Assembly: GCA_016183025.1 (NCBI GenBank)
Contig: JACPFL010000109.1
Span: 1-55,339 of the forward strand
Origin: Deltaproteobacteria bacterium
Lineage (GTDB): Bacteria; Desulfobacterota; JACPFL01
Length of the DNA stretch: 55,339 nt
Direction of reading: 5' to 3'
In this document: positions 4,309 through 31,603 of the stretch, piece by piece
Layout: each line of letters opens with the position of its first letter
How positions within the stretch are numbered: position 1 is the first letter of the stretch
The notes under the pieces: generated by a model
Database searches by the model: none
What the model was told of the DNA's origin: nothing
Seen by the model: only the letters and a program-made list of their open reading frames with translations
Made by a program: the position numbers and the translations under genes

Positions 4309-5325
4309 CTAGCGGCCGCGCTTGGGGAAGAGCTTCGGCAGGAAGTCGTTCGTGTAGATGTCTTCCACCGGGACCTTCGCCCCGACCTTCATGTACTCCG
4401 TGATGATGTCCCGCGTGGACTCCATCTTCTCCCGGGTCATGTAGCCGATCCCGAACTTCTTCGCCGTCTCCGTCATCAGGTGATCCACGGCGATCTCCCA
4501 GTCAGCGCGCGCCACCTCCGGGCTGATGGCCGTGTTGGCCTTGACGAAGAGCTCGATGGCGGGCCCGGAGTTCTCGACCGCCCACGCGAACCCCTTCATG
4601 GTCGCGTGCACGAAGCGGCGGACAAGGTCGGGTTTCTCCCGCACGAGCTTATCGGTCGCGATCAATCCATTCGAGTACACATCCACCCCGTAGTCGCTGT
4701 AGTAGATGACGTGGATGTCCTTCCCCTGTTTCTTCGCGGCAGCCCGAACGCTCGGGATCGCCGCGGCGAAGTATCCCACGGCGTCCACACGGCCCGCGAA
4801 CAGGCTGGGCGTCTGGGCATCCGCGGTCATGGTCACCCAGCGCACCTTCGCCTGGTCGATCCGGTTGGCGCCGGCGAAGGCCGGGAACACGACCTTGACT
4901 GCGTTCCCCTCCGGCGACCCGATGCTGCGCCCCTCAAGGTCCTTGGGGGTCGTCACCCCCGACCCCTTGAGCGTGACGATGGTGTACATCGACTTGTCGT
5001 GGATCATCGCGATCACTTTGACGGCCGCCCCCCGGGCTCGTGCGATGATGAGGGACGGCGTGTCAGCGAAGCCGACCTCCTCGGTCCCCGCCGCGATCCG
5101 CTTGACCGTGTCGCCCGAGCCGTGCCCGCGCAGGAGGGCCACGTCAAGGTTCTGCTCCTTGTAGAACCCTTTCTCCTGCGCGGCAAAGAACCCCGCGTGC
5201 TTGCCGTAGAACAGCCAGTCCAGCGCGAAGGATACCTTGTCCGCGGCCACCCCTGGTGATGGGCTCCAGCCGATCAGGCCCACCGCCAGCGCGATCCCCA
5301 GCACGATGCGTCTGGTGATCATCAT
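4309..5325 (-). CDS. NMT1/THI5-like (NitT/TauT-type) ABC substrate-binding protein, secreted (338 aa)
   Basis: The real start is ATGATG at 5325, with AGGAGG upstream. Signal peptide 'MMITRRIVLGIALAVGLIGWSPSPGVAA'. 'FALDWLFYGKHAGFFAAQEKGFYKEQNLDV' is typical of the NMT1 family. The upstream 378 aa of the 717-aa track ORF is read-through. Confidence 0.85.
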   Translation of the reverse strand: MMITRRIVLGIALAVGLIGWSPSPGVAADKVSFALDWLFYGKHAGFFAAQEKGFYKEQNLDVALLRGHGSGDTVKRIAAGTEEVGFADTPSLIIARARGAAVKVIAMIHDKSMYTIVTLKGSGVTTPKDLEGRSIGSPEGNAVKVVFPAFAGANRIDQAKVRWVTMTADAQTPSLFAGRVDAVGYFAAAIPSVRAAAKKQGKDIHVIYYSDYGVDVYSNGLIATDKLVREKPDLVRRFVHATMKGFAWAVENSGPAIELFVKANTAISPEVARADWEIAVDHLMTETAKKFGIGYMTREKMESTRDIITEYMKVGAKVPVEDIYTNDFLPKLFPKRGR

Positions 5326-5369
5326 GGCTTCCCCTCCTCTGCCCCCGACGACTGAATGCCTCCCGCGGC

Positions 5370-6404
5370 TCAGGGGCGTTGGTCCTCGGGCACGAGCCGG
5401 CCGTCCTGGACGACCGGCTCGCCGTCCAGCGCGAGGCTGGATCCCAGCATGGGCATGTCGAAGTGCGCGAGGGTGTGCCGGGTCCCGCCCGCCTCCGTGT
5501 TGGGCCCGGTCGAGAACTGCACGTTGCCGTAATACGAACGGGCGTCCATCCCGCAGCTCCGGGTCTCGAAGACCAGGGCCGGCCACTGGGCGCGTTCGTC
5601 CAGCCCCCAGCCGATGTGCGACACGGCGAACCCCTCGGGATCGCGGAAGCTCTCGAGCTGCTGCCGGAGCAGCAGGGCGTCCAGGCCGCCCTCGATCTTG
5701 CGGATGTACCCATCCTTGACCGTGAGCGTGATCGGCTGGCTGACGTAGCGGTTGAACGGCCAGATGAGGTCCCCGGTGCTGAGGACCACCCGCCCGGTCG
5801 TCCCTCCCTCGTTGGGCCAGGTGTAGAGGAACCCCGACGGCCAGTGATCCCAGCGCCCGGGCGTGTCGGTATAGCCGTACTGCGTGATCACCGGGTAGTC
5901 GCCGACCGCGATGACGAGGTCGGTCCCGGCCGGCGAGGTCACCCGAAGCTCGCGGGCTTTGCGCAGTCGTTCCGACCCCGCCTCCACACGGCGGCGAAGC
6001 GGCTCGGTCGGGAAGAGGCGAGCCAGGATCTCCACGGGCTCCACGACGAGCAGCATCCGTGCCCCGGCGCGCAGGATCTCCACCTGCTCGGGGGAGTGCA
6101 GGAGGAACATGAGGTCCACCACGAAGTCTGCCTTCTTCAGCGTCTCCAGCGCCACCCGCTGTCCTGTGAGCGGGGTCCGGCCCACGAAGGTCCCCCCCTT
6201 CTGACCCGGGTCTTGGCCGGCCGGCAGCGAGGGAAGCATGATCTCGAAGACCTGCGCCCCCAGCGCGCGGCACGCCGCGATGGAGGCCTGGATGTAGGCG
6301 GGCGAGCTGTGTGGCCCCGCCAGGACCACCACCGTCTCGCCCTCGTGGACCCGGCAGAGCTCGAACTCCGCCCGGAACAGCGCCGCCAGCTCCTCCGGTG
6401 TCAT
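5370..6404 (-). CDS. nicX: 2,5-dihydroxypyridine 5,6-dioxygenase-like protein (NicX/PicD family, M29-aminopeptidase fold)
   Basis: Long blocks match my recollection of P. putida NicX: 'LLHSPEQVEIL', 'GRWDHWPSGFLYTWPNE', 'SHIGWGL', 'MDARSYYGNVQFSTGPNTEAGG', 'HFDMP' (H-x-D). Start taken at MTPEEL (6404). Confidence 0.8.
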   Translation of the reverse strand: MTPEELAALFRAEFELCRVHEGETVVVLAGPHSSPAYIQASIAACRALGAQVFEIMLPSLPAGQDPGQKGGTFVGRTPLTGQRVALETLKKADFVVDLMFLLHSPEQVEILRAGARMLLVVEPVEILARLFPTEPLRRRVEAGSERLRKARELRVTSPAGTDLVIAVGDYPVITQYGYTDTPGRWDHWPSGFLYTWPNEGGTTGRVVLSTGDLIWPFNRYVSQPITLTVKDGYIRKIEGGLDALLLRQQLESFRDPEGFAVSHIGWGLDERAQWPALVFETRSCGMDARSYYGNVQFSTGPNTEAGGTRHTLAHFDMPMLGSSLALDGEPVVQDGRLVPEDQRP

Positions 6405-6540
6405 CGTCCCCCCTCCCGTTCTCCGGATCGCCAGGCCAGGCACTCCGCGCCCGGGGATCCACGTTCCCGCCCGAGGTCCCCTCCGGCGGCCCCTCAGCAG
6501 ATGCGCGCAGCCCTACTTTCCCCGCTCCCGCGCCCTCGGC

Positions 6541-7593
6541 TCAGGGCTTCGGGATCTTCGCCACGTTGAGCACGACCGGCACCTGGTTGCGGAGCTGCAC
6601 CATGTAGACGTTGAAATCGTAGGCCTGGTGGGTCGGCGTGAACCGGAACGTGCCGTTGAACCCCGAGTACTCCACCTTCTCCAGGGCGTCCCGGATCCGG
6701 GCCGACTCCGCGCTCCGCGCATCCGAGATCGCCTTGGCGATGATCTGCAGGACGAGGTACCCGGCGGCCGAGTACCCCTCACTGTAGGGGCCGGCGGCCT
6801 TGAGGTAGGCGTCGATGGTCCAGATCCCTTCGCCGAAGAGCTTGGCCTTGAGCCCCACCTCCTTGATCTGGCGGCTGAGCTGAATGGCATGGGTCTCGTA
6901 GGCGGTCATCCCCAGCGCGTCCACCCCCAGCGTCTTGATCCTCGTGAGATAGGAGTAGTAATCGGTCTCGCTGACCTGGTAGAAGTCGGTGCTGGCCACC
7001 CTGGCGCCGGCCTTCGTCATCGCTTCGCCAAACTCCTTCGCCATCCCCCGCCCCCAGTCCTCGTTGGTCACCAGGAAGGCGACCTTGCGGATCCCCTCCT
7101 TGTTGACCAGGGTCGGGGCGAAGGCGCGGGCCAGCAGGCGGGAGGTGGCCTGGGCCCGGAAGAACCACGGGTTCCCCTGCTCGGTCAGGACCGGGGCGGT
7201 CGAGACCCCGGTCACCTGGGGGATCCGGTACCGCTTCGTCACCTCCATCACCGCCCCTGTGGCCGAGCTGCAGAAGGCGCCGATGAGGGCCACGACCTGG
7301 TCCCGGTTGATGAGCTTTTCGGCCGCGGCCACGGACTGGGCCGGGTTGCAGATCCCATCCTCCACAAAGAGCTGGATGGGACGCCCGGCAACCCCGCCCC
7401 GGGCATTGATCTCCTCCATGGCGATCTTCGTTGCGTTCGCCTGGCTCTGGCCGCTGAAGGCGACCGGCCCGGTCAGCGGGGTCACCATCCCGATCCGGAT
7501 TGGCTCTGCTGCCCAGGCGACGGGCATCCCGCCGAAGAGAAGCGACACAAGCGCGACCAGCCACCCAACTCTTGTCCGTCCGCCCATGGTCAT
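6541..7593 (-). CDS. Liv-type (Leu/Ile/Val-binding family) periplasmic substrate-binding protein (350 aa)
   Basis: ATG at 7593 with an adjacent GGAGG. Signal peptide 'WLVALVSLLFGGMPVAWAA'. 'IRIGMVTPLTGPVAFSGQSQANATKIAMEEINARGGVAGRPIQL' is the Peripla_BP_6 hallmark. Confidence 0.9.
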   Translation of the reverse strand: MTMGGRTRVGWLVALVSLLFGGMPVAWAAEPIRIGMVTPLTGPVAFSGQSQANATKIAMEEINARGGVAGRPIQLFVEDGICNPAQSVAAAEKLINRDQVVALIGAFCSSATGAVMEVTKRYRIPQVTGVSTAPVLTEQGNPWFFRAQATSRLLARAFAPTLVNKEGIRKVAFLVTNEDWGRGMAKEFGEAMTKAGARVASTDFYQVSETDYYSYLTRIKTLGVDALGMTAYETHAIQLSRQIKEVGLKAKLFGEGIWTIDAYLKAAGPYSEGYSAAGYLVLQIIAKAISDARSAESARIRDALEKVEYSGFNGTFRFTPTHQAYDFNVYMVQLRNQVPVVLNVAKIPKP

Positions 7594-7650
7594 CCTCCGC
7601 TTGCGCTTCGAAACAGCCTTCCCAGCCGGGCCGTGGCGATACGACAGACC

Positions 7651-7676
7651 CCTGCCCAGCCCCTTGTCCGGGCAGG
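7651..7676 (-). terminator. Weak hairpin just after the upstream HO-like gene (7-bp stem, 12-nt loop)
   Basis: cctgccc ... gggcagg, 4 nt after the stop at 7680. No clear U-tract. Confidence 0.25.
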
Positions 7677-7679
7677 CGC

Positions 7680-8375
7680 TTACAGCGACGGGGACTTCCG
7701 CCCCTTCACGACGAACTCCCGGTACATCGCCTCGTGCCCGGCGATCTGGATCTCCAGGCAGTGCCTGGCTGCGAACCGGGCCCGGCGCTGCAGCTCCTCC
7801 GTCGTCGCGTAGTGCTCCAGCACCCAGTGCCCGATCTTCGAGTGCGCCACGTCGTCCAGCTCCCCGTGCTCCCCCCAGAAGCGGACCAGGGAGGGGTAGT
7901 TGTAGTACTGCCGCGCCGCCGCCGCCAGCCGGCCCCCGTACATCCCCACCGCCCCCTCGCTCGCGAAGTTGTTCGCCGCCGCCACCTCCACGATGTGCTT
8001 CCGCGCCAGCCAGTTGTAAAAGTACGGGAACGCCGCATACTCCGGGATGAGCTGCGCGTCCCGCGCCTCCTGCGGGTCTCGCCCCACCTCCCGCATGAAG
8101 TCCAGGATCCACTCCGGGTGCTCGTGCTCGTCGTGCAGGTAGTCGATGTACTGGGCCCGGACGACGGGATCCGGACAGATCCGCACCCAACCGGCGTAGA
8201 CGATCGGCATGTCCCGCAGGAAGCAGTAGAGCTGCTTCATGTACTCGACCACGTGGCCCAGCTCCAGCTTCCCCTCGTACCAGGCGCGGTTCATCGGGCT
8301 GTTGCAGAGCGCCTCCTGCAGCGGGCCGATCTCCTGCTGGAGCTGCTTCAGGAACTCGGGACCGGACAGTACCAT
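7680..8375 (-). CDS. Heme-oxygenase-like fold protein (TenA/PqqC/CADD, iron-containing redox enzyme family), paralog 1 (231 aa)
   Basis: ATG at 8375 after AGGAGGAGG. An all-helical-looking sequence with the His/Asp/Glu clusters 'LHDEHEHPEW', 'FASEGAV' and 'EHGELDDVAHS'. Confidence 0.7.
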   Translation of the reverse strand: MVLSGPEFLKQLQQEIGPLQEALCNSPMNRAWYEGKLELGHVVEYMKQLYCFLRDMPIVYAGWVRICPDPVVRAQYIDYLHDEHEHPEWILDFMREVGRDPQEARDAQLIPEYAAFPYFYNWLARKHIVEVAAANNFASEGAVGMYGGRLAAAARQYYNYPSLVRFWGEHGELDDVAHSKIGHWVLEHYATTEELQRRARFAARHCLEIQIAGHEAMYREFVVKGRKSPSL

Positions 8376-8458
8376 GGGTCCTCCTCCTCTCCTGTCATCG
8401 GGGGCTGCTGCCGCGGTCCCCCGCTCGTCGAAACCGTGTCCCCTGCCACGAGGGCGCC

Positions 8459-8486
8459 ATCCTATCCCTACGGCTGCCAATGTCAA
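8459..8486 (-). promoter_or_regulatory. Candidate promoter TTGACA-16-TAGGAT for HO-like paralog 1
   Basis: Minus strand reads TTGACAttggcagccgtagggaTAGGAT, about 80 nt upstream of the ATG, inside a 325-nt intergenic gap. Confidence 0.45.
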
Positions 8487-8700
8487 GAGCATCCGGACGC
8501 ATCCGGGAGCCCGGCCAGGCGCCCGGAGCGGGCCACGTTCTGCGTGACCAGGACGAGCGCCGGGCCACCGGGGGGATGAGGAAGGAGCGGGAGGGATCAG
8601 CGCCCCGCGAGCGGGAGCCGATGGTGGGCAGGGGGACCCAGAGGCCCCGGGTCCCGTTGGTCAGGCGCTCCCGGGGGACGACGGTGAGCTGGATGACCCG

Positions 8701-9393
8701 TCAGGCGAAGGCCTCGTAGGTGCTCAACATCTGGTAGTACGCTCCCGCGTAGGTCCAGGCGGCCTCCATGGCTTCCTGCTGCAGCTCCTCCGTGGTCGCG
8801 TACTCGTGCAGGGCCCGCAGGATGGAGTCGGAGTGGTCCTCGTCGGCCCTCACATGGACATCGAAGAACAGGACCTCGTCGTCGGTGAGCCCGTAAGACT
8901 TCCTCAGCCCATCGGCGATGAGCTTGAAGGCGATAGGGGACTGGTATTCGAACCCCATGGCACAGCCCATCCCCACGACCCAGTGCCGGTGTGCGAGGTA
9001 GAACTCCCCCAGGCGGATCACCTGGGCCGTCGCGGGGTGCAGTTTCGCCCGGTCCATCTCCTCACGCTTGAGCCCGAAGGCCACCCCCACACGGGCCATC
9101 AGCTCCGGATGGGAATCAGTCTTGGTGATCCCGCCCATCTCCTCTTCGTAGAGGTTGAGGAAGATCTCCCGCCGGAACTTCGGGATCGGGCAGTTCGCGT
9201 AGAGCGAGCCAATGTAGCGGACGATCTCGCGGGTCTGGATGTAGATCTGGTTGGCCCAGCCCGCCAGCTGGGTCTTGGTCAGCTCCCCCCGGTTGATCTT
9301 CTCGATCACCGGGTTCGATGCCAGAGCCCGCCCCGGGGCCTGCAGCCCCTGCTCGACGACCTTGACGTAGGTCTCGTAGTCCATCGGCGCCAT
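8701..9393 (-). CDS. Heme-oxygenase-like fold protein (TenA/PqqC/CADD family), paralog 2 (230 aa)
   Basis: Start taken at MAPMDYE (9393) after GGGGAGGG. Motifs are 'LYEEEMGG...SHPEL', 'GFEYQS' and 'DVHVRADEDHSD' (H-x3-D-x2-H). Confidence 0.7.
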   Translation of the reverse strand: MAPMDYETYVKVVEQGLQAPGRALASNPVIEKINRGELTKTQLAGWANQIYIQTREIVRYIGSLYANCPIPKFRREIFLNLYEEEMGGITKTDSHPELMARVGVAFGLKREEMDRAKLHPATAQVIRLGEFYLAHRHWVVGMGCAMGFEYQSPIAFKLIADGLRKSYGLTDDEVLFFDVHVRADEDHSDSILRALHEYATTEELQQEAMEAAWTYAGAYYQMLSTYEAFA

Positions 9394-9460
9394 CGTGCCC
9401 TCCCCTCTTACTGTGATCCACCCGGTCAATCGCCCTTCCCCGGGCAGCCGCGAGAGCGAG

Positions 9461-9488
9461 ATAATACGCCTGCCCCCTCTCTTGTCAA
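9461..9488 (-). promoter_or_regulatory. Strong sigma70-like promoter TTGACA-16-TATTAT for HO-like paralog 2
   Basis: Minus strand reads TTGACAagagagggggcaggcgTATTAT, with a perfect -35 and a 5/6 -10. It lies about 68 nt upstream of the ATG at 9393. Confidence 0.6.
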
Positions 9489-9516
9489 GGAGTGGAGTGC
9501 CTGCGGGCGCGGGCGG

Positions 9517-10476
9517 TCACCGGCCCCGGACGTTCTCGGCGAAGAGGTCGTCCACCGCGACCGGCTTGTCGATGAGCCCCTGCTCGTGCGACCACCGGAT
9601 CATGGTCTCGAGGGCCCGGCGGTTCTCCCGGAGGGTGAACGGCCACGGGTCGGGCCCCAGCACCCGCCGCTCCTCCTCCCAGGCGTCCATGGCCCAGGCC
9701 AGGGTCATCCGGTGCGGCTGTGAGCGGAACTCGTACTGGATGCGCTTGGCCGCCTCGAAGGCCGCCATGAGGTTCGGGCCGATCCACGGGTGTCGGCGGT
9801 AGAGCTCCGTGGGGATCACCAGCGGGTGCATGATCGGGAAGAGCCCCGTGGCCTCGTAGGAGCAGCGCTGGGCCTCGCGGAAATCCGGAAAGACCCGGCG
9901 CACCTCCGGGTGGCCATCCAGGCAGACCTTGGGGACGTTGGGGACCAGCAGCGCGTCGATCTTCCCGGCGAGCATCAACGCCCCCACGTCCTTGGACTCC
10001 GCCCGCTCCAGGCGGAGCCCCGGGACCTTCCGGTCCCGGTCCACCAGCTCCTCCTCGGTCGCCACCCAGGTGATGTCGGTCAGCGTCACGCCGTGGACGT
10101 GCTGCAGGACCCCCTTGGTCGTCAGCGCGAGGGTGTTCTCGTACGAGAGGATCCCCACGCGCTTCCCCGGCAGGTCCCCCGGCCCCTTGATCCCGGAACG
10201 GGCGCTGCAGAAGAAGAACTGCTCGCCGAACATGCGCCGGGTGAAGACCGGGACGGCGGTGAGCCAGTCCTCGCCCCGTGCGCGCATGACGATGTAGGAG
10301 GACATCGAGAACTCGCAGACGTCGAACTCCCGGTGCTCGTACATCCGCCGGTGCCGCGGCCCCGACGGGGCATACGCGATGTTGAGGTCAATCCCCTCGG
10401 GCCGGACCCGGCCGTCGAGCAGGGGCTGGAGGTAGTCGTAGTGGGAGATCGCCAGGGTCAGGGGAAGTCGGCTCAT
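9517..10476 (-). CDS. Cytoplasmic SBP-fold protein of the 4,5-dihydroxyphthalate decarboxylase (PhtD)-like group (319 aa)
   Basis: No signal peptide. 'LTLAISHYDYLQPLLDGRVRPEGIDLN...REFDVCEFSMSSYIV' matches the PhtD-like N-terminus as I recall it. Confidence 0.7.
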   Translation of the reverse strand: MSRLPLTLAISHYDYLQPLLDGRVRPEGIDLNIAYAPSGPRHRRMYEHREFDVCEFSMSSYIVMRARGEDWLTAVPVFTRRMFGEQFFFCSARSGIKGPGDLPGKRVGILSYENTLALTTKGVLQHVHGVTLTDITWVATEEELVDRDRKVPGLRLERAESKDVGALMLAGKIDALLVPNVPKVCLDGHPEVRRVFPDFREAQRCSYEATGLFPIMHPLVIPTELYRRHPWIGPNLMAAFEAAKRIQYEFRSQPHRMTLAWAMDAWEEERRVLGPDPWPFTLRENRRALETMIRWSHEQGLIDKPVAVDDLFAENVRGR

Positions 10477-10486
10477 CGGTCACTCC

Positions 10487-11266
10487 TTACGGGCGCTCCA
10501 CCTCGGCCTTGATGGAGAGCCACATGGAGGTGCACAGGTCGTTGAACTGCGCGTTCTTGCGTAGCTCCTCGAAATTGCGCGGGCGCGGGAGGTCCACCAC
10601 CACATGGTCCTTGACCCGTCCGGGCTGGGCGCTCATCACGATGATCCGGTCCGAGAGGAAGGCCGCCTCCTCGATGCTGTGGGTCACGAAGAGGACGGTC
10701 ATCCGCGTCTCCTCCCAGATCCTGAGGATCTCCTCCTGCATGACGCGGCGGGTCTGGGCGTCCAGGGCCCCGAAGGGCTCGTCCATGAGGAGCAGCTCGG
10801 GGTCCAGGGCCAGGGCCCGGGCGATGGCCACCCGTTGCTTCATCCCTCCGGAGAGCTCGTAGGGGAAGTGCTCGCTGAAGCGGCTCAGTCCCACCATGCG
10901 GGTCAGCCGCTCGACGGTCCCGTCCACGTCCTTCCCCTGCATCCGCTCCCGGGCGATCGCCAGCTCCAGCCCGAAGGCGATGTTGCGGCGGACGGAGAGC
11001 CAGGGGAACAGGATGAACTCCTGGAAGACGATGGAGCGCTCGGGGCCCGGCCTGGTGACCGGGCGGCCATGCATGACGATGGAGCCGGAGCTGGGCAGGA
11101 GCAGCCCGGCGATCATGTAGAGGAGCGTGCTCTTGCCGCAGCCCGACGGCCCCAGCAGGGTCACGAACTCCCCCTTGGTGATCCCGAAGCTCACGTCCTG
11201 GAGGGCCACCACCTCGGCCTTCCCCTTCTCCGAGAAGACCTTGGTGACCTGCCGGATCTCAACCAT
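10487..11266 (-). CDS. ABC transporter ATP-binding protein, NitT/TauT (SsuB/TauB-like) type (259 aa)
   Basis: Walker A 'GPSGCGKST', signature 'LSGGMKQRVAIARAL', Walker B 'LLLMDEPFGALD'. Confidence 0.9.
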   Translation of the reverse strand: MVEIRQVTKVFSEKGKAEVVALQDVSFGITKGEFVTLLGPSGCGKSTLLYMIAGLLLPSSGSIVMHGRPVTRPGPERSIVFQEFILFPWLSVRRNIAFGLELAIARERMQGKDVDGTVERLTRMVGLSRFSEHFPYELSGGMKQRVAIARALALDPELLLMDEPFGALDAQTRRVMQEEILRIWEETRMTVLFVTHSIEEAAFLSDRIIVMSAQPGRVKDHVVVDLPRPRNFEELRKNAQFNDLCTSMWLSIKAEVERP

Positions 11267-11389
11267 CAGCCGCCGGCCCTCCCCTTGCGCCCAGGCATCC
11301 CGGCGGGGGCGCCGGACGGTCAGAGGGGGTGGGGCGAACGGCAGGCCGGCGGGGGGCAGGGAACCGCCCCCCGTCTGCCCACCTCCCGG

Positions 11390-24465: not shown

Positions 24466-24519
24466 GGGACCACACGGCCGTCGCCGAAGCCACGGACGGA
24501 CCGGGAGCGCGCGAGCCTC

Positions 24520-25227
24520 TCAGGCGCTGCCGAGGTAGGCCCGTTTCACGTGCTCGTTCTCCAGCAGCGCGCGGGCGGGGCCCTCCAGCACGATCCGTCC
24601 CGTCTCCAGCACATAGGCCCGGTGGGCCAGGTTCAGGGCCAGGAAGGCGTTCTGCTCGACCAGCAGCACCGTCGCGCCTCGCTCGTGGATCCCCTGGATG
24701 ATCCTGGCCATCAGCTCCACCACCAGCGGGGCCAGGCCGAGGGAGGGCTCGTCGAACATGACCAGCTTCGGCTGCGACATCAGCGCCCGCCCGATCGCCA
24801 GCATCTGCTGCTCGCCCCCGGAGAGCGTCCCGCCGAGCTGCCGCCGGCGCTCTCGTAACACCGGGAAGACCGTGAACATCTGCTCCATGTCGGCCCGGAC
24901 CCCGCTCCGGTCACCCCGGAGGAACGCCCCGAGCTCCAGGTGCTCCTCCACCGTGAGCCGAGGCCAGATCTTCCGCTCCTCCGGGCAGTGGGAGATGCCC
25001 AGGCGCACGATCTCCTTGGGCGGCAGCCCGTCGATGCGGCGGTCGAGGAACTCGATGGCGCCGTCCGCCGGCGTGATCAGGCCGGAGATGGTCCGGAGGG
25101 TCGTGGACTTGCCGGCCCCGTTCGAGCCGATCAGCGCGATGATCTCCCTCTCGTTGACCTCCAGGGAGATCCCCTTCAGGGCCTCCACCCGGCCATAATA
25201 GCTGCGGATGCCGCGGACCTTCAGCAT
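24520..25227 (-). CDS. livF: Second LivF-class ABC ATP-binding protein (235 aa)
   Basis: ATG at 25227 after GGGAGGGAG. 'GSNGAGKSTTLRTISG', 'LSGGEQQMLAIGRAL', 'KRAYLGSA'. Confidence 0.9.
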   Translation of the reverse strand: MLKVRGIRSYYGRVEALKGISLEVNEREIIALIGSNGAGKSTTLRTISGLITPADGAIEFLDRRIDGLPPKEIVRLGISHCPEERKIWPRLTVEEHLELGAFLRGDRSGVRADMEQMFTVFPVLRERRRQLGGTLSGGEQQMLAIGRALMSQPKLVMFDEPSLGLAPLVVELMARIIQGIHERGATVLLVEQNAFLALNLAHRAYVLETGRIVLEGPARALLENEHVKRAYLGSA

Positions 25228-26135
25228 GGGCGGGCGCTCCCTCCCGGTCCCCGGCCCGCGGCCGATGGCTTCTGCGGCGTCTCGACCGGCTCGCCGGCGG
25301 GCCGGAGCCGCTCGCCCCCGGAGGAGGCGGGCCCACGGGCACCGGCCACGGCCGTCCCCCCGCGCGTCCCACCGGCGAAGCCCGCGCCCAGATAGGCGCG
25401 GATCACATCCGCGTTCTGCCGGATCTCGTCGGGCACGCCCTCGGCGATCTTCTCCCCATGATCCAGCACCACGACCCGGTCTGAGATCCCCATGACCACG
25501 TTCATGTCGTGCTCGACCAGGAGCACGGTCACGCCCTTGGCGCGGATCTGGCCGATCAGGTACGTGACGCGGCGCGTCTCCTCGGGGTTCATCCCCGCGG
25601 TCGGCTCGTCGAGGAGCAGCAGTTCGGGGTCCGCAGCCAGGGCCACCGCGATCTCCAGGAGCCGCAGGTCCCCGTAAGCCAGGTTCCGGGCGACCTCGCC
25701 CTCCTTGCCCGCGAGCCCCACGAACCCGATGATCTCCCGGGCGCGGTCGGCCACCCGCTCCTCGTGCGCCCGTTTTCGGCGGGTGCCGAGCAGCACATCC
25801 CACACCGGGGCCCGGGCGGCCTTGTGCAGGCCGATCAGCACCCCCGTGAGCACCGTGACCTCGGGGAAGACCTCGGTCTTCTGAAACGTGCGGGCGATGC
25901 CGCGGCGGGAGGCCTCGTGGCCCGGGCTCCCGCCGAGGTCACGGCCCCGGTAGAAGACCCGGCCTCTCGTGGGCCGGAGGAATCCGGTCATGAGGTTGAA
26001 GACCGTGGTCTTGCCGGCCCCGTTCGGCCCGATCAGGCTGACGATCTCCCCCTCGTCGACGTGGAAGGAGACGTCCCGCAGCGCGGCGAGCCCGCCGAAG
26101 TAGATCGTCAGGCCTTGCACATCGAGCAATTTCAT
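25221..26135 (-). CDS. livG: Second LivG-class ABC ATP-binding protein with about 55-aa low-complexity C-terminal tail (304 aa)
   Basis: Start at MKLLDVQG (26135). 'GPNGAGKTTVFNLMTGFLRP', 'LAYGDLRLLEIAVAL'. After the usual 'AYLG' end it continues Gly/Ala/Arg/Pro-rich to the stop at 25221. Confidence 0.85.
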   Translation of the reverse strand: MKLLDVQGLTIYFGGLAALRDVSFHVDEGEIVSLIGPNGAGKTTVFNLMTGFLRPTRGRVFYRGRDLGGSPGHEASRRGIARTFQKTEVFPEVTVLTGVLIGLHKAARAPVWDVLLGTRRKRAHEERVADRAREIIGFVGLAGKEGEVARNLAYGDLRLLEIAVALAADPELLLLDEPTAGMNPEETRRVTYLIGQIRAKGVTVLLVEHDMNVVMGISDRVVVLDHGEKIAEGVPDEIRQNADVIRAYLGAGFAGGTRGGTAVAGARGPASSGGERLRPAGEPVETPQKPSAAGRGPGGSARPC

Positions 26136-26143
26136 GGGGCGCA

Positions 26144-26171
26144 AGCATAGTCGCCAGCCCACCGCTGTCAA
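26144..26171 (-). promoter_or_regulatory. Promoter TTGACA-16-TATGCT, ATG 8 nt after the -10 (near-leaderless)
   Basis: Minus strand reads TTGACAgcggtgggctggcgacTATGCTtgcgccccATG. No Shine-Dalgarno can fit. Confidence 0.5.
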
Positions 26172-26363: not shown

Positions 26364-26834
26364 TCAGCGGGCGGCGTTCGCGCACGCCTCGATCGCCTCG
26401 ATGATCTGGTGGTACCCCGTGCAGCGGCAGAGGTTGCCGGCGATCGCCCGCTTGATCTCCGCAGGGGTGGGGTGCGGGTTCTCATCCAGGAGGGCCTTGG
26501 CCGAGAGGATCATCCCGGGGGTGCAGAAGCCGCACTGGAACCCGTAGTGCTCGATGAACGCGCGCTGCAGGGGGTGGAGCTCGCCGCCGCTGGCCAGCCC
26601 CTCGATCGTCACGATCTTGCGGCCAGCCGCGTGCGGGGCGAGGGTCAGACAGGCGTGCACGGTGCGGCCGTCGAGGATGACCGTGCAGGCGCCGCACTCC
26701 CCCATGCGGCAGTTGACCTTCGTCCCGGTGAGCCCCAGGGTATCCCGGAGCACGTCCACCAGGGTCTGGGTCGGTTCCACCTCCACCTGGTAGCCGCGGC
26801 CGTTGACCGTCAGTCGGATCTTCCGGCGAGCCAT
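26364..26834 (-). CDS. [2Fe-2S]-binding small subunit (CoxS-like, 156 aa)
   Basis: 'CRMGECGACTVILDG' and 'QCGFCTPGMI...CRCTGY'. Confidence 0.92.
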   Translation of the reverse strand: MARRKIRLTVNGRGYQVEVEPTQTLVDVLRDTLGLTGTKVNCRMGECGACTVILDGRTVHACLTLAPHAAGRKIVTIEGLASGGELHPLQRAFIEHYGFQCGFCTPGMILSAKALLDENPHPTPAEIKRAIAGNLCRCTGYHQIIEAIEACANAAR

Positions 26835-26836
26835 GA

Positions 26837-27757
26837 TCAGGCCCCCTCCCTGGAGCGCTGGCGGCCCCGGCCCCGGGTGGCCTCACGCCCGTCCCCCGCG
26901 ACCTGCCAGGCCTGCTCGAGCGCCCGGCGGCTGAGCACGCCGACCAGGTGTCGCTTGTACTCCTCCGACCCGAAGACATCGCTGCTGGGAGCGGCCAGGG
27001 CCCGCGCCCGCCGGGCCACCTCTTCGAGGAGCCCGGGCGAGGGGCGCTCGCCGCGCAAGAGCCCGGCCGCCTCGTCGCAGAGCAGCGGCGTGGGCCCCAC
27101 CGCGCCGAGCGCCAGCCGGGCGTCCTGACACACCCCGTCGGCATCGAGGGTCACCCGCGCGCCCACCCCCGCCACCGGGAAATCCAGCGCGTTCCGGTGG
27201 CTGAACTTCACGTACGTCGCCCCGGTCCCCGGCGGCAGCGGCGGCACCCGGACCTCGGTCAGCAGCTCCCCGGGCTGGAGCGCCGTGCTCAGGAAGTCCA
27301 CGAAGAAGCCCCGTAACGGCAGGCTTCGAGCACCGGCGGCGGAGGCCAGGGTCACCTCCGCATCCAGCACCAGGAGGGCCGGAGCCGGATCCTCCCGCGG
27401 GTCCCCGTGGCAGAGGTTGCCCCCGATGGTGCCGGCATTCCGCACCTGGATCGAGCCCACCTGCCCCTCCATCTCGACCAGCACCGGGGCCCGCCGACGG
27501 ACGACGCGAGAGGTCTCGATCTCCCGATGGGTGGTCAGGGCCCCGATCCGCAACCCCGCGGCGTCGTCCCATCGGATGTACCGGAGCTCCCGAAGCCGGC
27601 GGATGCTGATCAGGCAGGTCGGCTGCAAGAGCCGGTGGTTCATCAGGATGATCAGGGCCAGGCCGCCGGCGATGAGCTTGGCGCCCTCGCCCTGCTCGGT
27701 CAGCGCCCGCGAGGCCTCCTCGACGCTCCGCGCTTCGATGTACTCCACGCCTGTCAC
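26837..27757 (-). CDS. FAD-binding medium subunit (CoxM-like, 306 aa)
   Basis: 'AKLIAGGLALI' and 'VRNAGTIGGNLCHGDP'. It sits between the large and small subunits. Confidence 0.88.
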   Translation of the reverse strand: MTGVEYIEARSVEEASRALTEQGEGAKLIAGGLALIILMNHRLLQPTCLISIRRLRELRYIRWDDAAGLRIGALTTHREIETSRVVRRRAPVLVEMEGQVGSIQVRNAGTIGGNLCHGDPREDPAPALLVLDAEVTLASAAGARSLPLRGFFVDFLSTALQPGELLTEVRVPPLPPGTGATYVKFSHRNALDFPVAGVGARVTLDADGVCQDARLALGAVGPTPLLCDEAAGLLRGERPSPGLLEEVARRARALAAPSSDVFGSEEYKRHLVGVLSRRALEQAWQVAGDGREATRGRGRQRSREGA

Positions 27758-27811
27758 CCCCAGACCCTCTGCCTCGACCTCACTCCCCGGCCTGCCCAGT
27801 CGCCGGCTCCC

Positions 27812-30094
27812 TCAGGCCGTCCGGCCCGCCGCCCCCAGCGCCCGCCAGACCTTCTCGGGCGTGGCCGGGATCTCGTCGATCCAGACCCCCAGCGCGTCGT
27901 GGAGGGCCGCGACCAGCGCCGGCGCCACATCCTTCACCGAGTGCTCGGAGGCGCCTTTCGCTCCATAGGGACCGGCCGGGTAGGGCTCCTCCACGAACGA
28001 CACGATGGTCTCGTCCGTGACGTCGCTGGCCGTGGGGAGGAGGTACTCCATGAGGCTCGGGGTCAGGATCTGGCCCCCCTCCGTGGGCATGTCCTCCAGG
28101 AGCGCGAACCCCAGCCCCTGGGCCTCCCCCCCGATCAACTGCCCCCGCAGGGCCCCGGGGTTCAGCGCCCGCCCCACGTCCAGCACCACCACCGAGCGCA
28201 GCGGCCGCACCTTCCCCGTCTCCTCGTCCACCTCGAGGTCCATGAGGCCGGCGGAAAAGGTATGGCCCAGCTTGCCGTGGGGCTGGGAGAACCACCCATC
28301 GCCCCGCAGCTCGATCCCCTTCAGGCGGCACGCCCAGGAGAGCTTCCCCAGCGAGATGCGGCGGTCCGGCCGCTCGCGGACGAAGACATGCCCCTCGGCC
28401 AGGCCCAGCGCCTCGGGGGGCGCCTCGAGCTCATCCGCCGCGGCCTCGAAGACCTTCGTCCGCAGGTTGTGCGCCGCGAGCATGGCCGCGTTGCCCAGGC
28501 AGAAGGCCTGGCGGGACGCCACCGCCCGCCCCGACTTCGGCACCGCGGAGGTGTCCCCCAGCACGCAGGTCACGTCCTTGACCTCCAGCCCCAGCTCCTC
28601 GGCCACCACCTGGGCGAGCAGGGTCGAAGCCCCCTCGCCGAACTCGGCGGACTCGCACCGGACCACCGCCGTCCCGTCCGGCAGCAACTCGATGTTCGCC
28701 CCGGTCCCCTTCAGCAGGTAGATGGCGCCCGAAGAGGTATCGAAGATCGGCATGGTGCAGGCCACGCCGCGCCCGACCTTCTTGCGGGGGCCCGAGGGCT
28801 CGGGCTTCGGCCCGGCCAGCTCCCGGATCCGGGTCAGCACCTGCGGGAGCGTGACGGGATGATCGAGGTGGAGCATGGGCGAGATCGGGGTCGAGCGCCC
28901 CTGGACCAACGCGTTCTTCAGGCGGAGCGCGATAGGGTCCGTGCCCAGCGCCGTGGCCATCTTGTTCACCGTGGTCTCGAGGGCGAAGGCCGCCTGCGGG
29001 CCGCCGAAGCCCCGGAAGGCGCCGGCGATAGGGTCGTTCGTGTACGCCGCGACGCCCCGAATCCGCACGTTGGGGATGTCGTACGGACCACCCAGGTAGC
29101 AGCAGGCGACCTTGAGCACCGGCGGCGACGAGGAGGCGTAGGCGCCCCCGTTCAGCAGCACGTCGGCCTCGCAGGCGACGAAGGTCCCGTCGCGCCTCGC
29201 GCCCAGCTTCACCCGGATCCGGGCCGGGTTCCGCTTGGGGCTGGCCTGGAACGACTCCTCCGAGCGCCAGGCCATCCGCACCGGCCGGCCGCTCTTCAGC
29301 GCCAGCAGCGCCAGGTGGGGATGCACCGACACGTCGATCTTGCCGCCGAAGGCCCCGCCCATGGGCACGGGCACCACCCGGACCCGGTGCTCCGGGATCC
29401 CCAGCGCCCGGCTCACGCTCGTCCGCGCCTGCATCGGCGCCTGCGTGCCGGCGTACAGCGTCACCCCGCCCCCCGGCTCGGGCACCCCCACCCCCGCCGC
29501 CGGCTCCATGTACGCGTGCTCCTGGCGCGGCGTCCGGTAGGTCCCCTCCACGATCACGTCCGACTCGGCGAACCCACGCTCCACGTCGCCCCGGTCCAGC
29601 ACGACCGGGTCCCCACAGATGTTGCTCCCGCGGTCCTCGTGCACCCGGGGCGCGCCGGGCTGGATCGCCGCCTCCGGGTCCACAATGGGCGGCAGCACCT
29701 CGTACTCCACCTGGATCCGCTCCAGCGCTGCCTCCGCCAGCGCCTCGCTCTCCGCCGCCACCAGGGCGAGGGGGTCCCCCACCATCTTGGCCGTCTCCCC
29801 CTCGGCCACCAGCACCGGCTGGTCCGCCGCGTAGTCGCCGAACCGGTTCGTGCCGGCGACATCCTTGGCGGTGACCACGGCGATCACGCCCGGCATCCGC
29901 TCGGCCTCGCTCGGGTCGATCCGGAGCACCCGGGCGTGGGGATAGGGCGAGCGCAACGTCTTCCCGTGCAGCATCCCCGGAAACGTCACGTCGATGTTGT
30001 AGCGCTCCTGGCCGGTCGTCTTCGCCGGGCCCCGCACATCGGGGACCGTCTGCCCGATCACCCGGTAGGGAGAGCCGTCAGACGCCATCGCCAC
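27812..30094 (-). CDS. Xanthine dehydrogenase-family molybdopterin large subunit (760 aa, FRGFG type)
   Basis: 'VIGQTVPDVRGPAKTTGQERYNIDV', 'GGAFGGK', 'GAFRGFGGPQ', 'GAKGASEHS'. Confidence 0.9.
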   Translation of the reverse strand: MAMASDGSPYRVIGQTVPDVRGPAKTTGQERYNIDVTFPGMLHGKTLRSPYPHARVLRIDPSEAERMPGVIAVVTAKDVAGTNRFGDYAADQPVLVAEGETAKMVGDPLALVAAESEALAEAALERIQVEYEVLPPIVDPEAAIQPGAPRVHEDRGSNICGDPVVLDRGDVERGFAESDVIVEGTYRTPRQEHAYMEPAAGVGVPEPGGGVTLYAGTQAPMQARTSVSRALGIPEHRVRVVPVPMGGAFGGKIDVSVHPHLALLALKSGRPVRMAWRSEESFQASPKRNPARIRVKLGARRDGTFVACEADVLLNGGAYASSSPPVLKVACCYLGGPYDIPNVRIRGVAAYTNDPIAGAFRGFGGPQAAFALETTVNKMATALGTDPIALRLKNALVQGRSTPISPMLHLDHPVTLPQVLTRIRELAGPKPEPSGPRKKVGRGVACTMPIFDTSSGAIYLLKGTGANIELLPDGTAVVRCESAEFGEGASTLLAQVVAEELGLEVKDVTCVLGDTSAVPKSGRAVASRQAFCLGNAAMLAAHNLRTKVFEAAADELEAPPEALGLAEGHVFVRERPDRRISLGKLSWACRLKGIELRGDGWFSQPHGKLGHTFSAGLMDLEVDEETGKVRPLRSVVVLDVGRALNPGALRGQLIGGEAQGLGFALLEDMPTEGGQILTPSLMEYLLPTASDVTDETIVSFVEEPYPAGPYGAKGASEHSVKDVAPALVAALHDALGVWIDEIPATPEKVWRALGAAGRTA

Positions 30095-31484
30095 CGTCGC
30101 GCTCCGTCTTCACGCCCTCACGCGGACCATAGACCGTGTCGTAGTAGAGGGTGCGCCGCGTCATGAAATGGGTGCGCTCGTAGCGCATCTCCCGGGCCTG
30201 AGGCCAGGGATGGCGGAGGTCCACACAGCGACCCCCCTTCATGACCACCGCCAGCCGGGCGCGATCCTGCAGCACCCGGATGTCCCCGAGCGGGTCGCCA
30301 TCCACCACGAGGAGGTCGGCATAGCGCCCCGGCTCCAGGACGCCGCCGTCCTGCTCGAGGTTCACGGCCACGGCGTTGTTGCGGGTCGCCGCCATGATGG
30401 CCTCCATCGGCGTGAAGTCCAGGTACTTGACGAAGATCTCGAGCTCCCGGGCGTGCCAGTGGCCGAACGGGGTCACCGCGAACCCGGCATCCGTCCCCGC
30501 CATGAACCGGAGCCCGGCCTGGCGGGCCAGGCTCAGGATCTTCACCGAGGAGTCGATCAGCCGCTTGTAACTGTCCATGAGCCCCTGCGACGCCCCGACC
30601 AGGTGTCCCCACTCGACGGTGTTGACGAGCAGCGTCAGCGTGGGACAGATCGGGATGCCGGTCTTCAGCAGGGCCCCCAGGTCCGTCTCGTTCATGAGGT
30701 CGCCGTGGATCACCCAGTCCACCCCGGCCTCCGCGGCGTACCGGACCGCCAGGCCGGCCCGGGCGTGGATGGTCACCTTCTTCCCCAGCCGGTGGGTCTC
30801 CTCCACGATCGCCTTCAGCTCGTCCAGGCTGAGCGAGGGGACATCCCCCGAGGGCGTCCACACCGGGTTCGGATCGCCGCTCCCCGCCACCTTGATCAGG
30901 TCTACCCCCTGCTTCACCTGTCGGCGCACCTCGCGGACCATCTCGTCCCGGGTGTTGCACAGGACCCCGACGTTCGACGGCGGGGAGCCGACCCAGAGCG
31001 GGAAGAGATCCCCGATCGAGGCATGGGTCGAGAGCATCTGCCCCGCCGCGGTCATGCGCGGCCCTTCGACCAGCCCCGCGGCCATGGCATCGCGCACGGC
31101 CACCGCCACGCCCCACCGGCTCCCCGGGTCGCAGATCCCGGTGACGCCCGCGCGCAGGACCTTCTGCATGTTCCAGGCGGCCCGGATGGCCGAGTACTCG
31201 GCGCCCGGGTACATCCCCTCCTCCTCGTGCGTGCGGACCTCCCCGTAGCTCGTGTGGCAGTGGGCGTCGATCAGCCCGGGCATCACGGTCTTGCCGCCGG
31301 CCTCGATGACGAGATCGTACGGACCCTCCGGGGCCTCGCGCGCCGGGCCGACCCAGGCGATCCGCTCCCCTGCCACCACGACCGCCCCGTCGCGCATGGC
31401 CGGGCGCCCAGTCCCGTCAATGATCGTCCCACCCCGGATCAGCGTCCGCCCGGTCCCGCCTGCCTGCTCCGTGGCCGTGGTCAT
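30078..31484 (-). CDS. Amidohydrolase_1 family metallohydrolase (468 aa)
   Basis: Start at MTTATEQ (31484). 'LIRGGTIIDGTG...GKTVMPGLIDAHCHTS' gives the H-x-H metal motif. It overlaps the downstream Mo subunit start by 17 nt. Confidence 0.8.
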   Translation of the reverse strand: MTTATEQAGGTGRTLIRGGTIIDGTGRPAMRDGAVVVAGERIAWVGPAREAPEGPYDLVIEAGGKTVMPGLIDAHCHTSYGEVRTHEEEGMYPGAEYSAIRAAWNMQKVLRAGVTGICDPGSRWGVAVAVRDAMAAGLVEGPRMTAAGQMLSTHASIGDLFPLWVGSPPSNVGVLCNTRDEMVREVRRQVKQGVDLIKVAGSGDPNPVWTPSGDVPSLSLDELKAIVEETHRLGKKVTIHARAGLAVRYAAEAGVDWVIHGDLMNETDLGALLKTGIPICPTLTLLVNTVEWGHLVGASQGLMDSYKRLIDSSVKILSLARQAGLRFMAGTDAGFAVTPFGHWHARELEIFVKYLDFTPMEAIMAATRNNAVAVNLEQDGGVLEPGRYADLLVVDGDPLGDIRVLQDRARLAVVMKGGRCVDLRHPWPQAREMRYERTHFMTRRTLYYDTVYGPREGVKTERDGGDGV

Positions 31485-31574
31485 CTCCGTCCTCTCGCCG
31501 GCCCCATGCCGGCCCTCTCCCACCCCGGATCGGACGGCCATTTCCATCCGTTCCAGCGCCTTCCGGTGCAGAGC

Positions 31575-31603
31575 ATCCTAGGAGACAGGCCGAACGCGGT
31601 CAA
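31575..31603 (-). promoter_or_regulatory. Candidate promoter TTGACC-17-TAGGAT heading the catabolic gene array
   Basis: Minus strand reads TTGACCgcgttcggcctgtctccTAGGAT, about 90 nt upstream of the amidohydrolase ATG. Confidence 0.45.

Follow-up and report, generated by a model that had tools for sequence, protein, structure and literature searches.

Gene content of the NicX-containing run

We analysed contig JACPFL010000109.1 of a Deltaproteobacteria bacterium (GenBank assembly GCA_016183025.1), whose 55,339 bp with about 69% GC are referred to as the window, and in particular a long run of genes that includes a homolog of the 2,5-dihydroxypyridine (2,5-DHP) dioxygenase NicX. Because spurious frames dominate raw lists of open reading frames (ORFs) in such GC-rich DNA, genes were called throughout the window from their third-position GC content (GC3). 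This resulted in 25 consecutive minus-strand genes extending unbroken from 31547 down to 4309, which we numbered g26 to g2 in the order of transcription. A 67-aa ORF at 3980-4183 may extend the run to 26 genes. The first-pass annotation, made from the sequence alone, had described about 28 head-to-tail genes with mostly tiny gaps. The unbroken minus-strand arrangement held but the gene number was too high, and the gaps are indeed mostly small: 13 of the 24 junctions overlap or are separated by at most 30 nt, five have gaps of 31-100 nt, and six have gaps of 123-325 nt. The 27 kb are not interrupted by any unrelated housekeeping gene.

The ring-cleavage dioxygenase

5370-6404, minus strand: g3, predicted NicX-type 2,5-dihydroxypyridine 5,6-dioxygenase (PDB search, 7cn3)

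The g3 protein aligns with Pseudomonas putida NicX (7cn3) over 339 residues (query 18-356) with an E-value of 4.6e-100 and about 55% identity. All three Fe(II) ligands of NicX, His265, His318, and Asp320, are present together with Ser302 and His105 (P. putida numbering), and the motifs LLHSPE, SHIGWG, FSTGPN, and AHFDMP are kept. The NicX-like dioxygenase that had been recognised by its SHIGWG and H-x-D motifs is thus well founded, with five active-site residues conserved. The affiliation with M29 aminopeptidases, which had been named as the point to check, was rejected: the PDB homology search retrieves NicX only and no aminopeptidase T or S match even at E<=10. Homologs of g3 carry the PF26233 (NicX) domain, and its nearest relatives are metagenomic proteins of 62-70% identity that are annotated as 2,5-DHP dioxygenases. 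Where their genomic contexts were looked up, they were canonical nic-type clusters with a NicC-like monooxygenase, an alpha/beta-hydrolase, an isochorismatase, and xanthine dehydrogenase (XDH) genes, and in some cases unrelated. Because the closest relatives (62-67% identity) are found in canonical nicotinate-type clusters, g3 probably retains the 2,5-DHP function. The assignment of g3 as a close NicX relative and predicted 2,5-DHP dioxygenase is therefore solid. The neighbourhoods of these closest metagenomic relatives gave no clue to the upper pathway of the cluster described here.

Missing canonical genes and comparison with other NicX loci

For comparison we collected 80 NicX loci from species-representative genomes in a GTDB scan, in which the best matches were merely 53% identical to g3, and five further loci from metagenomes. 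All ORFs of these loci were clustered into families, whose occurrence was counted over 83 loci. The four families found most often next to NicX correspond to the canonical genes, and Pfam spot checks agree with their identities:

54 of 83 loci: isochorismatase type, likely NicF
50 of 83 loci: alpha/beta-hydrolase, likely NicD
46 of 83 loci: FAD monooxygenase, likely NicC
38 of 83 loci: Asp/Glu-racemase/Amdase type, likely NicE

Of the 55 loci that extend for 8 kb or more to either side of NicX, 49 (89%) contain at least one of NicD, NicF, and NicE within 10 kb of NicX, and six (about 11%) contain none. With about 190 NicC, NicD, NicF, and NicE homologs from the 83 loci as queries, tblastn found no match at E<1e-3 across the 55-kb window, and none of the called genes of the window has an abhydrolase, isochorismatase, or Asp/Glu-racemase Pfam match. 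The earlier remark that none of the three lower-pathway genes could be recognised thus holds for the entire window. The absence of NicD, NicF, and NicE from the window is genuine, represents a minority state, and is not unique. In addition, none of the cluster genes has the FAD_binding_3 match expected for NicC, and no gene of the window encodes the Rieske or Ring_hydroxyl_A domain expected for PicB. Judged from these domain searches, the step that makes 2,5-DHP, whether by NicC or by PicB together with a PicC-type enzyme, is also missing or at most remotely represented.

We did not find a syntenic genome, as none of the 80 GTDB NicX loci has the unusual module. The upper modules of other NicX clusters are diverse and comprise NicC, a Rieske oxygenase combined with Amidohydro_2, UbiD/UbiX (L006), and a PhtD-like protein combined with pic genes (L065). 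With such a diversity another variant is plausible. For example, locus L006 from an alphaproteobacterial metagenome-assembled genome (MAG; 2000-15000) contains NicX, an XDH set resembling that of g15, a DUF2390 protein, UbiX, a CMD-family protein, UbiD, an abhydrolase_3 esterase, and an isochorismatase. Clusters of this type, with similar ones in L002, L009, L014, and L015, have no members of the NicC, NicD, and NicE families and appear to represent another route to 2,5-DHP.

Molybdenum hydroxylases and the amidohydrolase g26

30078-31547, minus strand: g26, Amidohydro_1 metal-dependent amide hydrolase (Cc2672/prolidase/ochratoxinase-like), first gene of the run
26364-30094, minus strand: complete XDH-family set 1, g25-g24-g23
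27812-30094, minus strand: g25, Mo subunit (Pfam)
26837-27757, minus strand: g24, FAD subunit (Pfam)
26364-26834, minus strand: g23, 2Fe-2S subunit (Pfam)
13894-19874, minus strand: XDH-family set 2 with an extra Mo subunit, g15-g14-g13-g12 (Pfam, NCBIfam)
17526-19874, minus strand: g15, Mo subunit, Qor-like
16645-17529, minus strand: g14, FAD subunit
16169-16642, minus strand: g13, 2Fe-2S subunit
13894-16164, minus strand: g12, second Mo subunit, 4-HBCR-alpha-like

In total there are three Mo, two FAD, and two 2Fe-2S subunits, which make up two complete sets and leave g12 without dedicated partners. The first-pass annotation had listed three sets with four Mo subunits, which is not supported by the Pfam matches, and no further XDH gene is present anywhere in the window. 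The Mo subunits g12, g15, and g25 all contain the Hammerhead, MoCoBD_1, and MoCoBD_2 domains and the GxKGxxE catalytic-Glu motif, which reads GAKGASE in the g25-g23 set. Pairwise they share only 32-37% identity, an indication that each has a specificity of its own. The best NCBIfam model for set 1 is pucD with 563 bits, below its cut-off, and the best PDB relatives are the 4-HBCR alpha subunit and the nicotinate dehydrogenase of E. barkeri. The best solved relatives of g15 are the large subunit of quinoline 2-oxidoreductase (E 1.3e-166) and 6-hydroxypseudooxynicotine dehydrogenase. Together with the NicX orthology of g3, this relationship upholds the proposed N-heteroaromatic theme of the cluster. 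The Mo-Cu active-site loop of form I CO dehydrogenase (CODH) subunits, CoxL, has the Cys-containing sequence AYRCSFR. An assignment of g15 to CoxL was rejected because it has PVRGAGR at the position of the copper-binding loop and scores 872 against the NCBIfam CODH group-5 cut-off of 950. Seven other loci encode subunits resembling g15 (47-50% identity) at a distance of at most 10 kb from NicX.

The amidohydrolase g26 matches PF01979 (E 7.5e-33) with visible HxH, K, and D motifs. Its best PDB relatives are of the carboxypeptidase, prolidase, and ochratoxinase types (E 1e-38 to 1e-28).

Decarboxylase-type proteins, the luciferase-like oxidoreductase and the tautomerase

9517-10476, minus strand: g7, cytoplasmic PhtD-like (4,5-dihydroxyphthalate-decarboxylase-like) protein with NMT1 fold
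12748-13866, minus strand: g11, Amidohydro_2, ACMSD/LigW decarboxylase type (Pfam PF04909, E 3.9e-21)
11739-12725, minus strand: g10, luciferase-like (LLM) oxidoreductase (Pfam PF00296, E 9.5e-48)
11390-11584, minus strand: g9, 64-aa protein of the 4-oxalocrotonate tautomerase (4-OT) family (Pfam PF01361, E 2.1e-15)

The g7 protein is labelled 'ABC transporter substrate-binding protein' by PGAP. It aligns with PhtD (9jp7) over its full length (residues 1-313, E 1.8e-44), and its N-terminus, MSRLPLTLAISHYDY, is not a signal peptide. By homology g7 is a putative PhtD-type enzyme and a predicted decarboxylase. In L086 and L088, XDH Mo and FAD genes lie on either side of homologs with 44% identity, and in L065, a pic-like locus, a homolog of 32% identity neighbours an XDH FAD subunit gene. 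The metagenome scan with g7 returned only five short contigs and is informative just for the XDH subunits flanking g7-like genes. Locus L065 (Comamonadaceae MAG, 479-11649) contains a complete pic-like cluster consisting of Rieske oxygenase alpha and beta subunits with a reductase, Amidohydro_2, an Amdase-type isomerase, a hydrolase, NicX, and an isochorismatase, with the PhtD-like gene, a TctC receptor, and the XDH FAD subunit just upstream. This layout suggests that a pyridine dicarboxylate enters the picolinate pathway via a branch of its own.

The PDB relatives of g11 include LigW, ACMSD, IDCase, and PtmU3. The similarity to the PicC-like Amidohydro_2 genes beside NicX in pic-like loci is remote (E 3e-10 to 9e-7). 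Of the two decarboxylase types that had been proposed, both the Amidohydro_2 and the PhtD-like protein are thus confirmed as family members, while the likeness of g11 to the PicC-like genes beside NicX amounts to an E-value of about 1e-10 at best. A g11 homolog with 72% identity is located one gene from a g15 homolog with 53% identity in L103.

As a separate observation, g11-type genes are found near NMT1-like proteins in the MAG contigs L100, L101, and L104, the latter alone having five of these. In L103 and L104 they are also close to LLM oxidoreductases and alpha/beta-hydrolases, and in L103 to a protein with a Meth_synt_2 domain. The neighbourhoods in L103, L104, L100, and L101 look like a recurrent module.

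According to NCBIfam g10 belongs to the F420-type LLM proteins (TIGR03619, 187 bits against a cut-off of 166.9). The key residues of 4-OT are Pro1, Arg11, and Arg39. Pro1 and Arg11 are kept in g9 but position 39 is a His, and the NF002571 score of 56.9 is just over the cut-off of 55. Given the His at position 39, the substrate of g9 is probably not 2-hydroxymuconate.

The heme-oxygenase-like pair

8701-9393, minus strand: g6, heme-oxygenase-like dimetal (HDO), CADD-like protein (Pfam PF14518, Haem_oxygenas_2, E 3.6e-31)
7680-8375, minus strand: g5, HDO, CADD-like protein (Pfam PF14518, Haem_oxygenas_2, E 4.7e-15)

As for the LLM, 4-OT, and Amidohydro_1 proteins, Pfam agrees with the initial description of two heme-oxygenase-like proteins. 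The two are only 25% identical. All six metal ligands of CADD (E81, H88, E142, H174, D178, H181) align identically in g6, and g5 keeps equivalent positions if a single inserted residue is allowed for. In g6, Ile takes the place of the sacrificial Tyr27 of CADD. Therefore, a CADD-type p-aminobenzoate (pABA) synthase was rejected, also because the TIGR04305 scores of 104 (g6) and 37 bits (g5) are below the cut-off of 200. The family is rare: at E<=1e-10, an indexed search retrieved 21 proteins and an exhaustive search of 1.84 billion representatives retrieved 191 clusters, of which nine reach E<=1e-30. Neither this rarity nor the non-canonical formation of 2,5-DHP had been pointed out in the first-pass annotation. 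Relatives of g6 are found as tandem pairs beside NMT1-like proteins, amidohydrolases, an amidase, and transporters. The closest homolog (83% identity) directly follows a Rieske-type ferredoxin gene, which suggests a reductant-dependent oxygenase. The 325-nt gap between g6 and g5 (8376-8700) contains no convincing ORF, for example for a ferredoxin, and no Rfam match.

A review of the HDO superfamily (PMC13108848) lists biosynthetic reactions only, namely oxidative decarboxylation, C-C fragmentation, N-oxygenation, rearrangements, and pABA synthesis, so that a catabolic ring oxygenase would be new. The putative oxygenase role of g5 and g6 is suggested by their position and by the fact that the LLM protein g10 is the sole other oxygenase candidate. 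On these grounds we regard the pair as the leading candidate for a replacement oxygenase, ahead of g10.

Transport genes

19892-26171, minus strand: Liv-type ATP-binding cassette (ABC) importer, g22-g16 (Pfam)
25221-26171, minus strand: g22, LivG
24520-25227, minus strand: g21, LivF
23593-24465, minus strand: g20, LivH
22623-23582, minus strand: g19, LivM
21851-22636, minus strand: g18, second LivG
21160-21864, minus strand: g17, second LivF
19892-21073, minus strand: g16, binding protein with signal peptide (Peripla_BP_6)
10487-11266, minus strand: g8, NitT/TauT-type ABC ATPase
6541-7593, minus strand: g4, Peripla_BP_6 solute-binding protein (Pfam E 6e-65, signal peptide visible)
4309-5325, minus strand: g2, NMT1/SsuA-type periplasmic solute-binding protein, last gene of the run (Pfam PF09084, E 6.9e-50, signal peptide visible)

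The Liv importer contains two LivG and two LivF subunits (pairs 53% and 60% identical) but only a single LivH and a single LivM. Similar transporters (43-59% identity) adjoin NicX in L060, L011, L048, and L069, and homologs of g4 (38-40% identity) do so in the same four loci and in L064. The binding proteins g16 and g4 are encoded 12 kb apart and are 31% identical. A permease that would belong to g8 and g2 was not found in the window by tblastn with the cognate permease from L005, in which the homologous system has all three components, an ATPase, a BPD_transp_1 permease, and a binding protein. Instead of the four solute-binding proteins counted at first, there are three true ones with signal peptides (g2, g4, and g16); the fourth NMT1-like protein is the PhtD-like g7.

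Transcription units

A simple consensus scan, whose sigma-70 model may differ from the promoters of the host, found four sigma-70-like sites on the minus strand compared to about 1.5 expected by chance, all of them in larger intergenic gaps:

31603-31575, minus strand: promoter-like site upstream of g26
26171-26144, minus strand: promoter-like site upstream of g22
9488-9461, minus strand: promoter-like site upstream of g6
8486-8459, minus strand: promoter-like site TTGACA-16-TAGGAT upstream of g5, in the 8376-8700 gap

These sites together with the six gaps of more than 120 nt suggest at least about four transcription units, possibly g26-g23, g22-g7, g6, and g5-g2. The description as a single supercluster was thus too strong. 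An Rfam scan of the window found no riboswitch or other RNA and therefore no regulatory clue.

Proposed pathway and alternative explanations

In our preferred reading, to which we assign a probability of roughly 0.6, the run is a catabolic island for the uptake of N-heteroaromatic compounds of the pyridine-carboxylate type, which would be channelled via 2,5-DHP to NicX, and the resulting N-formylmaleamate is most likely handled outside the contig. At the level of annotation this is a well-founded hypothesis, within which we infer the order of the steps, the substrate class, the role of g5 and g6, and the fate of N-formylmaleamate. Uptake would be accomplished by the Liv-type ABC system and the binding proteins (g16-g22, g4, and g2), after which g26 could possibly free the heteroaromatic acid from an amide or a conjugate. 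Up to three XDH-family Mo hydroxylases (g25/g24/g23, g15/g14/g13, and g12, which would have to borrow FAD and FeS subunits) would then hydroxylate next to the ring nitrogen, and the PhtD-like g7 and the Amidohydro_2 protein g11 would perform non-oxidative decarboxylations. The hydroxylation at the beta-position is normally performed by NicC or by the Rieske oxygenase PicB. Here, an O2-dependent beta-position hydroxylation or a decarboxylative hydroxylation would be needed, for which g5/g6 are the leading candidate followed by the LLM protein g10. Finally, g3 is expected to open the ring of 2,5-DHP in an extradiol-type reaction yielding N-formylmaleamate, whose further fate most likely depends on genes outside the contig.

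The reading is supported by the recurrent linkage of g7-like and g11-like genes to XDH-family subunits elsewhere. The earlier suggestion of an upper pathway combining Mo-dependent hydroxylation and decarboxylation of a pyridine (di)carboxylate fits the PhtD-like genes found beside XDH subunits; its substrate class stays at the level of an inference. Several observations weigh against the proposed island. Homologs of g5, g6, g9, and g11 are not found near NicX in any of the 85 loci, so that their linkage is seen in this organism only. The g11 family is large with variable neighbourhoods, and its sole meaningful link is the one to the g15-like Mo subunit in L103. The cluster holds neither a regulator gene nor a reductase or ferredoxin gene for g5/g6, and the known HDO enzymes are biosynthetic with none being a ring hydroxylase (PMC13108848). 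In addition, the promoter-like sites and the large gaps allow for independent modules, and because nearly the whole contig is co-oriented the shared strand is weak evidence for one unit.

Alternatively, the lower pathway might be encoded within the cluster by non-orthologous enzymes replacing NicD, NicF, and NicE, such that g26 hydrolyses N-formylmaleamate or maleamate and g9 and/or the F420-type LLM protein g10 process the C4 unit. It is in favour of this scenario that the canonical genes are absent from 55 kb while 89% of the comparison loci have at least one of them within 10 kb, that the family of g26 comprises amide-bond hydrolases, that g9 with its His39 is probably not a standard 2-hydroxymuconate tautomerase, that g10 exceeds the cut-off for F420-type LLM proteins, and that other NicX loci contain a different hydrolase family, e.g. 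abhydrolase_3 in L006. However, g26 is located at the start of the run, adjacent to a Mo hydroxylase and 24 kb away from g3, which suits an upstream step better, and g9 and g10 are grouped with g11 and the Mo genes and not with g3. Their homologs elsewhere are not linked to NicX except for weak matches of 26% (LLM, L061) and 28% (Amidohydro_1, L079). Distant lower-pathway genes are known in some genera, and there are the six other NicX loci without NicD, NicF, and NicE nearby. We therefore consider the in-cluster replacement unlikely. According to the pic paper, picG is encoded far from the cluster in some genera (bioRxiv 10.1101/530550). With this precedent, the six similar loci, and an absence that refers to a single 55-kb MAG contig, genes encoded elsewhere and genes replaced by others cannot be separated, and the absence does not by itself imply the different post-cleavage enzymes that the first-pass annotation had suggested. 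It is also improbable that two novelties coincide, namely g5/g6 as a new catabolic ring oxygenase that would convert a hydroxypyridine carboxylate to 2,5-DHP (by hydroxylation or an UndA-like oxidative decarboxylation) and replace NicC and PicB, and a route of Amidohydro_1, 4-OT, and F420-type LLM proteins replacing NicD, NicF, and NicE.

The run could also consist of several independent operons that serve different substrates and happen to be neighbours on the leading strand, forming a mosaic of g26-g23, g22-g7, g6, and g5-g2 with NicX instead of one 27-kb pathway. Such a mosaic would be in accordance with the promoter-like sites upstream of g26, g22, g6, and g5, the six gaps of 123-325 nt, the common strand of nearly all genes of the contig, and the homologs of single modules that are found separately elsewhere, and the duplicated LivG/LivF and the orphan ATPase suggest a patchwork assembly. 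We nevertheless regard it as rather improbable. All enzyme families fit the single theme of hydroxylation, decarboxylation, and cleavage of N-heteroaromatics. Other genomes also combine NicX with hydroxylases resembling g15, Liv transporters, and binding proteins of the g4 type, PhtD-like genes are repeatedly found together with XDH subunits and accompany one pic-like cluster, and no unrelated housekeeping gene breaks the 27 kb. It is harder still to imagine that g2 and g5-g8 are non-catabolic cofactor genes, for TenA/ThiY-like salvage of the thiamine pyrimidine or for CADD-type pABA or PqqC-type synthesis, which are present by chance. Both g5 and g6 do match Pfam TENA/THI-4/PQQC (E about 1e-7) and the NCBIfam CADD family, and NMT1/THI5-like proteins with NitT-type ABC parts are typical of the salvage of the pyrimidine moiety. 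But the Rfam scan detected neither a thiamine pyrophosphate (TPP) nor any other riboswitch in the window, g6 lacks the CADD Tyr27 and reaches 104 instead of 200 bits, g7 is a full-length PhtD-type homolog and not a binding protein, and the relatives of g6 are found in catabolic-looking contexts with amidohydrolases, amidases, a Rieske ferredoxin, and transporters. This explanation is very improbable.

Relation to known systems

The nic cluster of Pseudomonas putida KT2440 consists of NicAB, NicC, NicX, NicD, NicF, and NicE and is responsible for the aerobic catabolism of nicotinate. As in nic, the cluster described here contains a NicX ortholog (about 55% identity) in which every catalytic residue is kept, and the first hydroxylation is expected to be Mo-dependent. 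In contrast, it has no NicC flavin monooxygenase, no NicD, NicF, or NicE, and no regulator, and its hydroxylases are of the three-subunit Qor/CODH-like and not of the NicAB type. The pic cluster is responsible for picolinate catabolism in Alcaligenes faecalis JQ135, with PicB being a Rieske-type 6-hydroxypicolinate 3-monooxygenase, as described in the respective report (bioRxiv 10.1101/530550). Both clusters contain a three-subunit XDH-family hydroxylase, which makes the 6-hydroxy acid in pic and is represented here by two complete sets matching PicA at the family level. They also share a putative decarboxylase step by the Amidohydro_2 family and the predicted ring opening by a NicX-type dioxygenase (PicD), and the lower pathway may be located away from the cluster, as for picG in some genera. 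However, PicB, PicE, PicF, and PicG are missing here and g11 is remote from the PicC-like genes beside NicX, whereas two more Mo subunits, the PhtD-like protein, the HDO pair, and the LLM, 4-OT, and Amidohydro_1 proteins are additional. Judged from its gene families, the cluster shares the logic of pic and nic (Mo hydroxylation, decarboxylation, 2,5-DHP, and NicX) but belongs to neither.

The loci L065, L006, and L003/L005, the last two having a g15-like Mo subunit, Liv and NitT ABC systems, and NicX, show the same modular combination of an XDH hydroxylase, some decarboxylase, NicX, and ABC uptake, with Mo subunits 47-50% identical to g15. They differ in retaining at least the isochorismatase-type amidase and usually the alpha/beta-hydrolase, and none of them has the HDO pair, 4-OT, or a g11-type Amidohydro_2 protein. 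PhtD (9jp7) from phthalate catabolism and g7 can be aligned over the full length, both using a cytoplasmic NMT1/periplasmic-binding-protein-like fold as enzyme. The context of g7 is N-heterocyclic, however, without phthalate dioxygenase or dehydrogenase genes, and its substrate is presumably a hydroxylated pyridine dicarboxylate. The metal ligands of CADD, which together with UndA, BesC, and SznF belongs to the HDO enzymes, are kept in g6 with equivalent positions in g5. The known members are biosynthetic, in contrast to the divergent, 25%-identical pair without CADD Tyr27 in a catabolic cluster. We found no matching cluster described in the literature on pyridine-dicarboxylate, quinolinate, the PhtD structure, and HDO catabolism.

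Bacteria mineralise nicotinate, picolinate, nicotine, and related pyridines aerobically mainly by routes via 2,5-DHP, and most of the examples characterised so far come from Proteobacteria and Actinobacteria. The present cluster and the NicX loci containing UbiD or PhtD-like genes indicate that uncultured soil lineages attach quite different upstream modules to one ring-cleavage enzyme. If g5/g6 were the missing oxygenase, the HDO superfamily would extend from biosynthesis into aromatic catabolism, and regioselective pyridine hydroxylation would gain a new biocatalyst. A true replacement of the lower pathway would mean that N-formylmaleamate can reach central metabolism by a second route.

Boundaries, organism and further genes of the contig

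Almost every gene of the contig is located on the minus strand. The boundaries of the cluster are clear because toxin-antitoxin-type genes are present in one flank and YfhO and glycosyltransferase genes in the other. The downstream flank (1-3900) has a GC content below that of the rest of the contig and contains ParE and BrnT toxin genes and an SBP_bac_3 gene; the stretch 8-3811 with 62-64% GC marks the downstream edge of the cluster.

8-319: ParE toxin (Pfam match), with an overlapping small ORF at 295-492 in antitoxin-like position
2836-3123: BrnT toxin (Pfam match), with an overlapping small ORF at 2562-2900 in antitoxin-like position

The ORF pair 3578-3811/3291-3581 has a toxin-antitoxin-like layout as well, and its 77-aa ORF has no Pfam match. 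In the upstream flank a divergent gene for a YfhO-like membrane protein is followed by sugar-nucleotide and glycosyltransferase genes. A recent horizontal acquisition was rejected because there is no integrase or transposase and the GC content of the cluster (67-73%) equals that of the rest of the contig, with only 1-3900 being lower. A sister MAG labelled 'Deltaproteobacteria bacterium', which carries MBI3075765-8 and MBI3077411, shares proteins of more than 90% identity, and the same organism is present in the Logan assemblies of SRR12113401 and SRR12113422. Some homologs of g3 and g11 come from MAGs that are labelled Binatia or Deltaproteobacteria.

Beyond the cluster, three consecutive ORFs (177, 403, and 244 codons) at 37974-40568 on the minus strand form one high-GC3 frame with in-frame stops in between. 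The C-terminal one matches YfhO, and the three look like a disrupted gene of about 865 aa, either a pseudogene or an assembly error, whose intact paralog would be the gene at 31961-34387 on the plus strand. A gene near the contig end (52640-55315 on the minus strand) encodes an 891-aa protein in which an aldehyde dehydrogenase domain (E 4e-171) is fused to an enoyl-CoA hydratase domain (E 3e-75). A compact one-carbon block at 43403-49558 on the minus strand comprises a split glycine dehydrogenase (GcvPB, GcvPA), GcvH, GcvT, MTHFR, and FolD, and just downstream of it an octopine/nopaline-dehydrogenase-like gene is located at 41597-42733.

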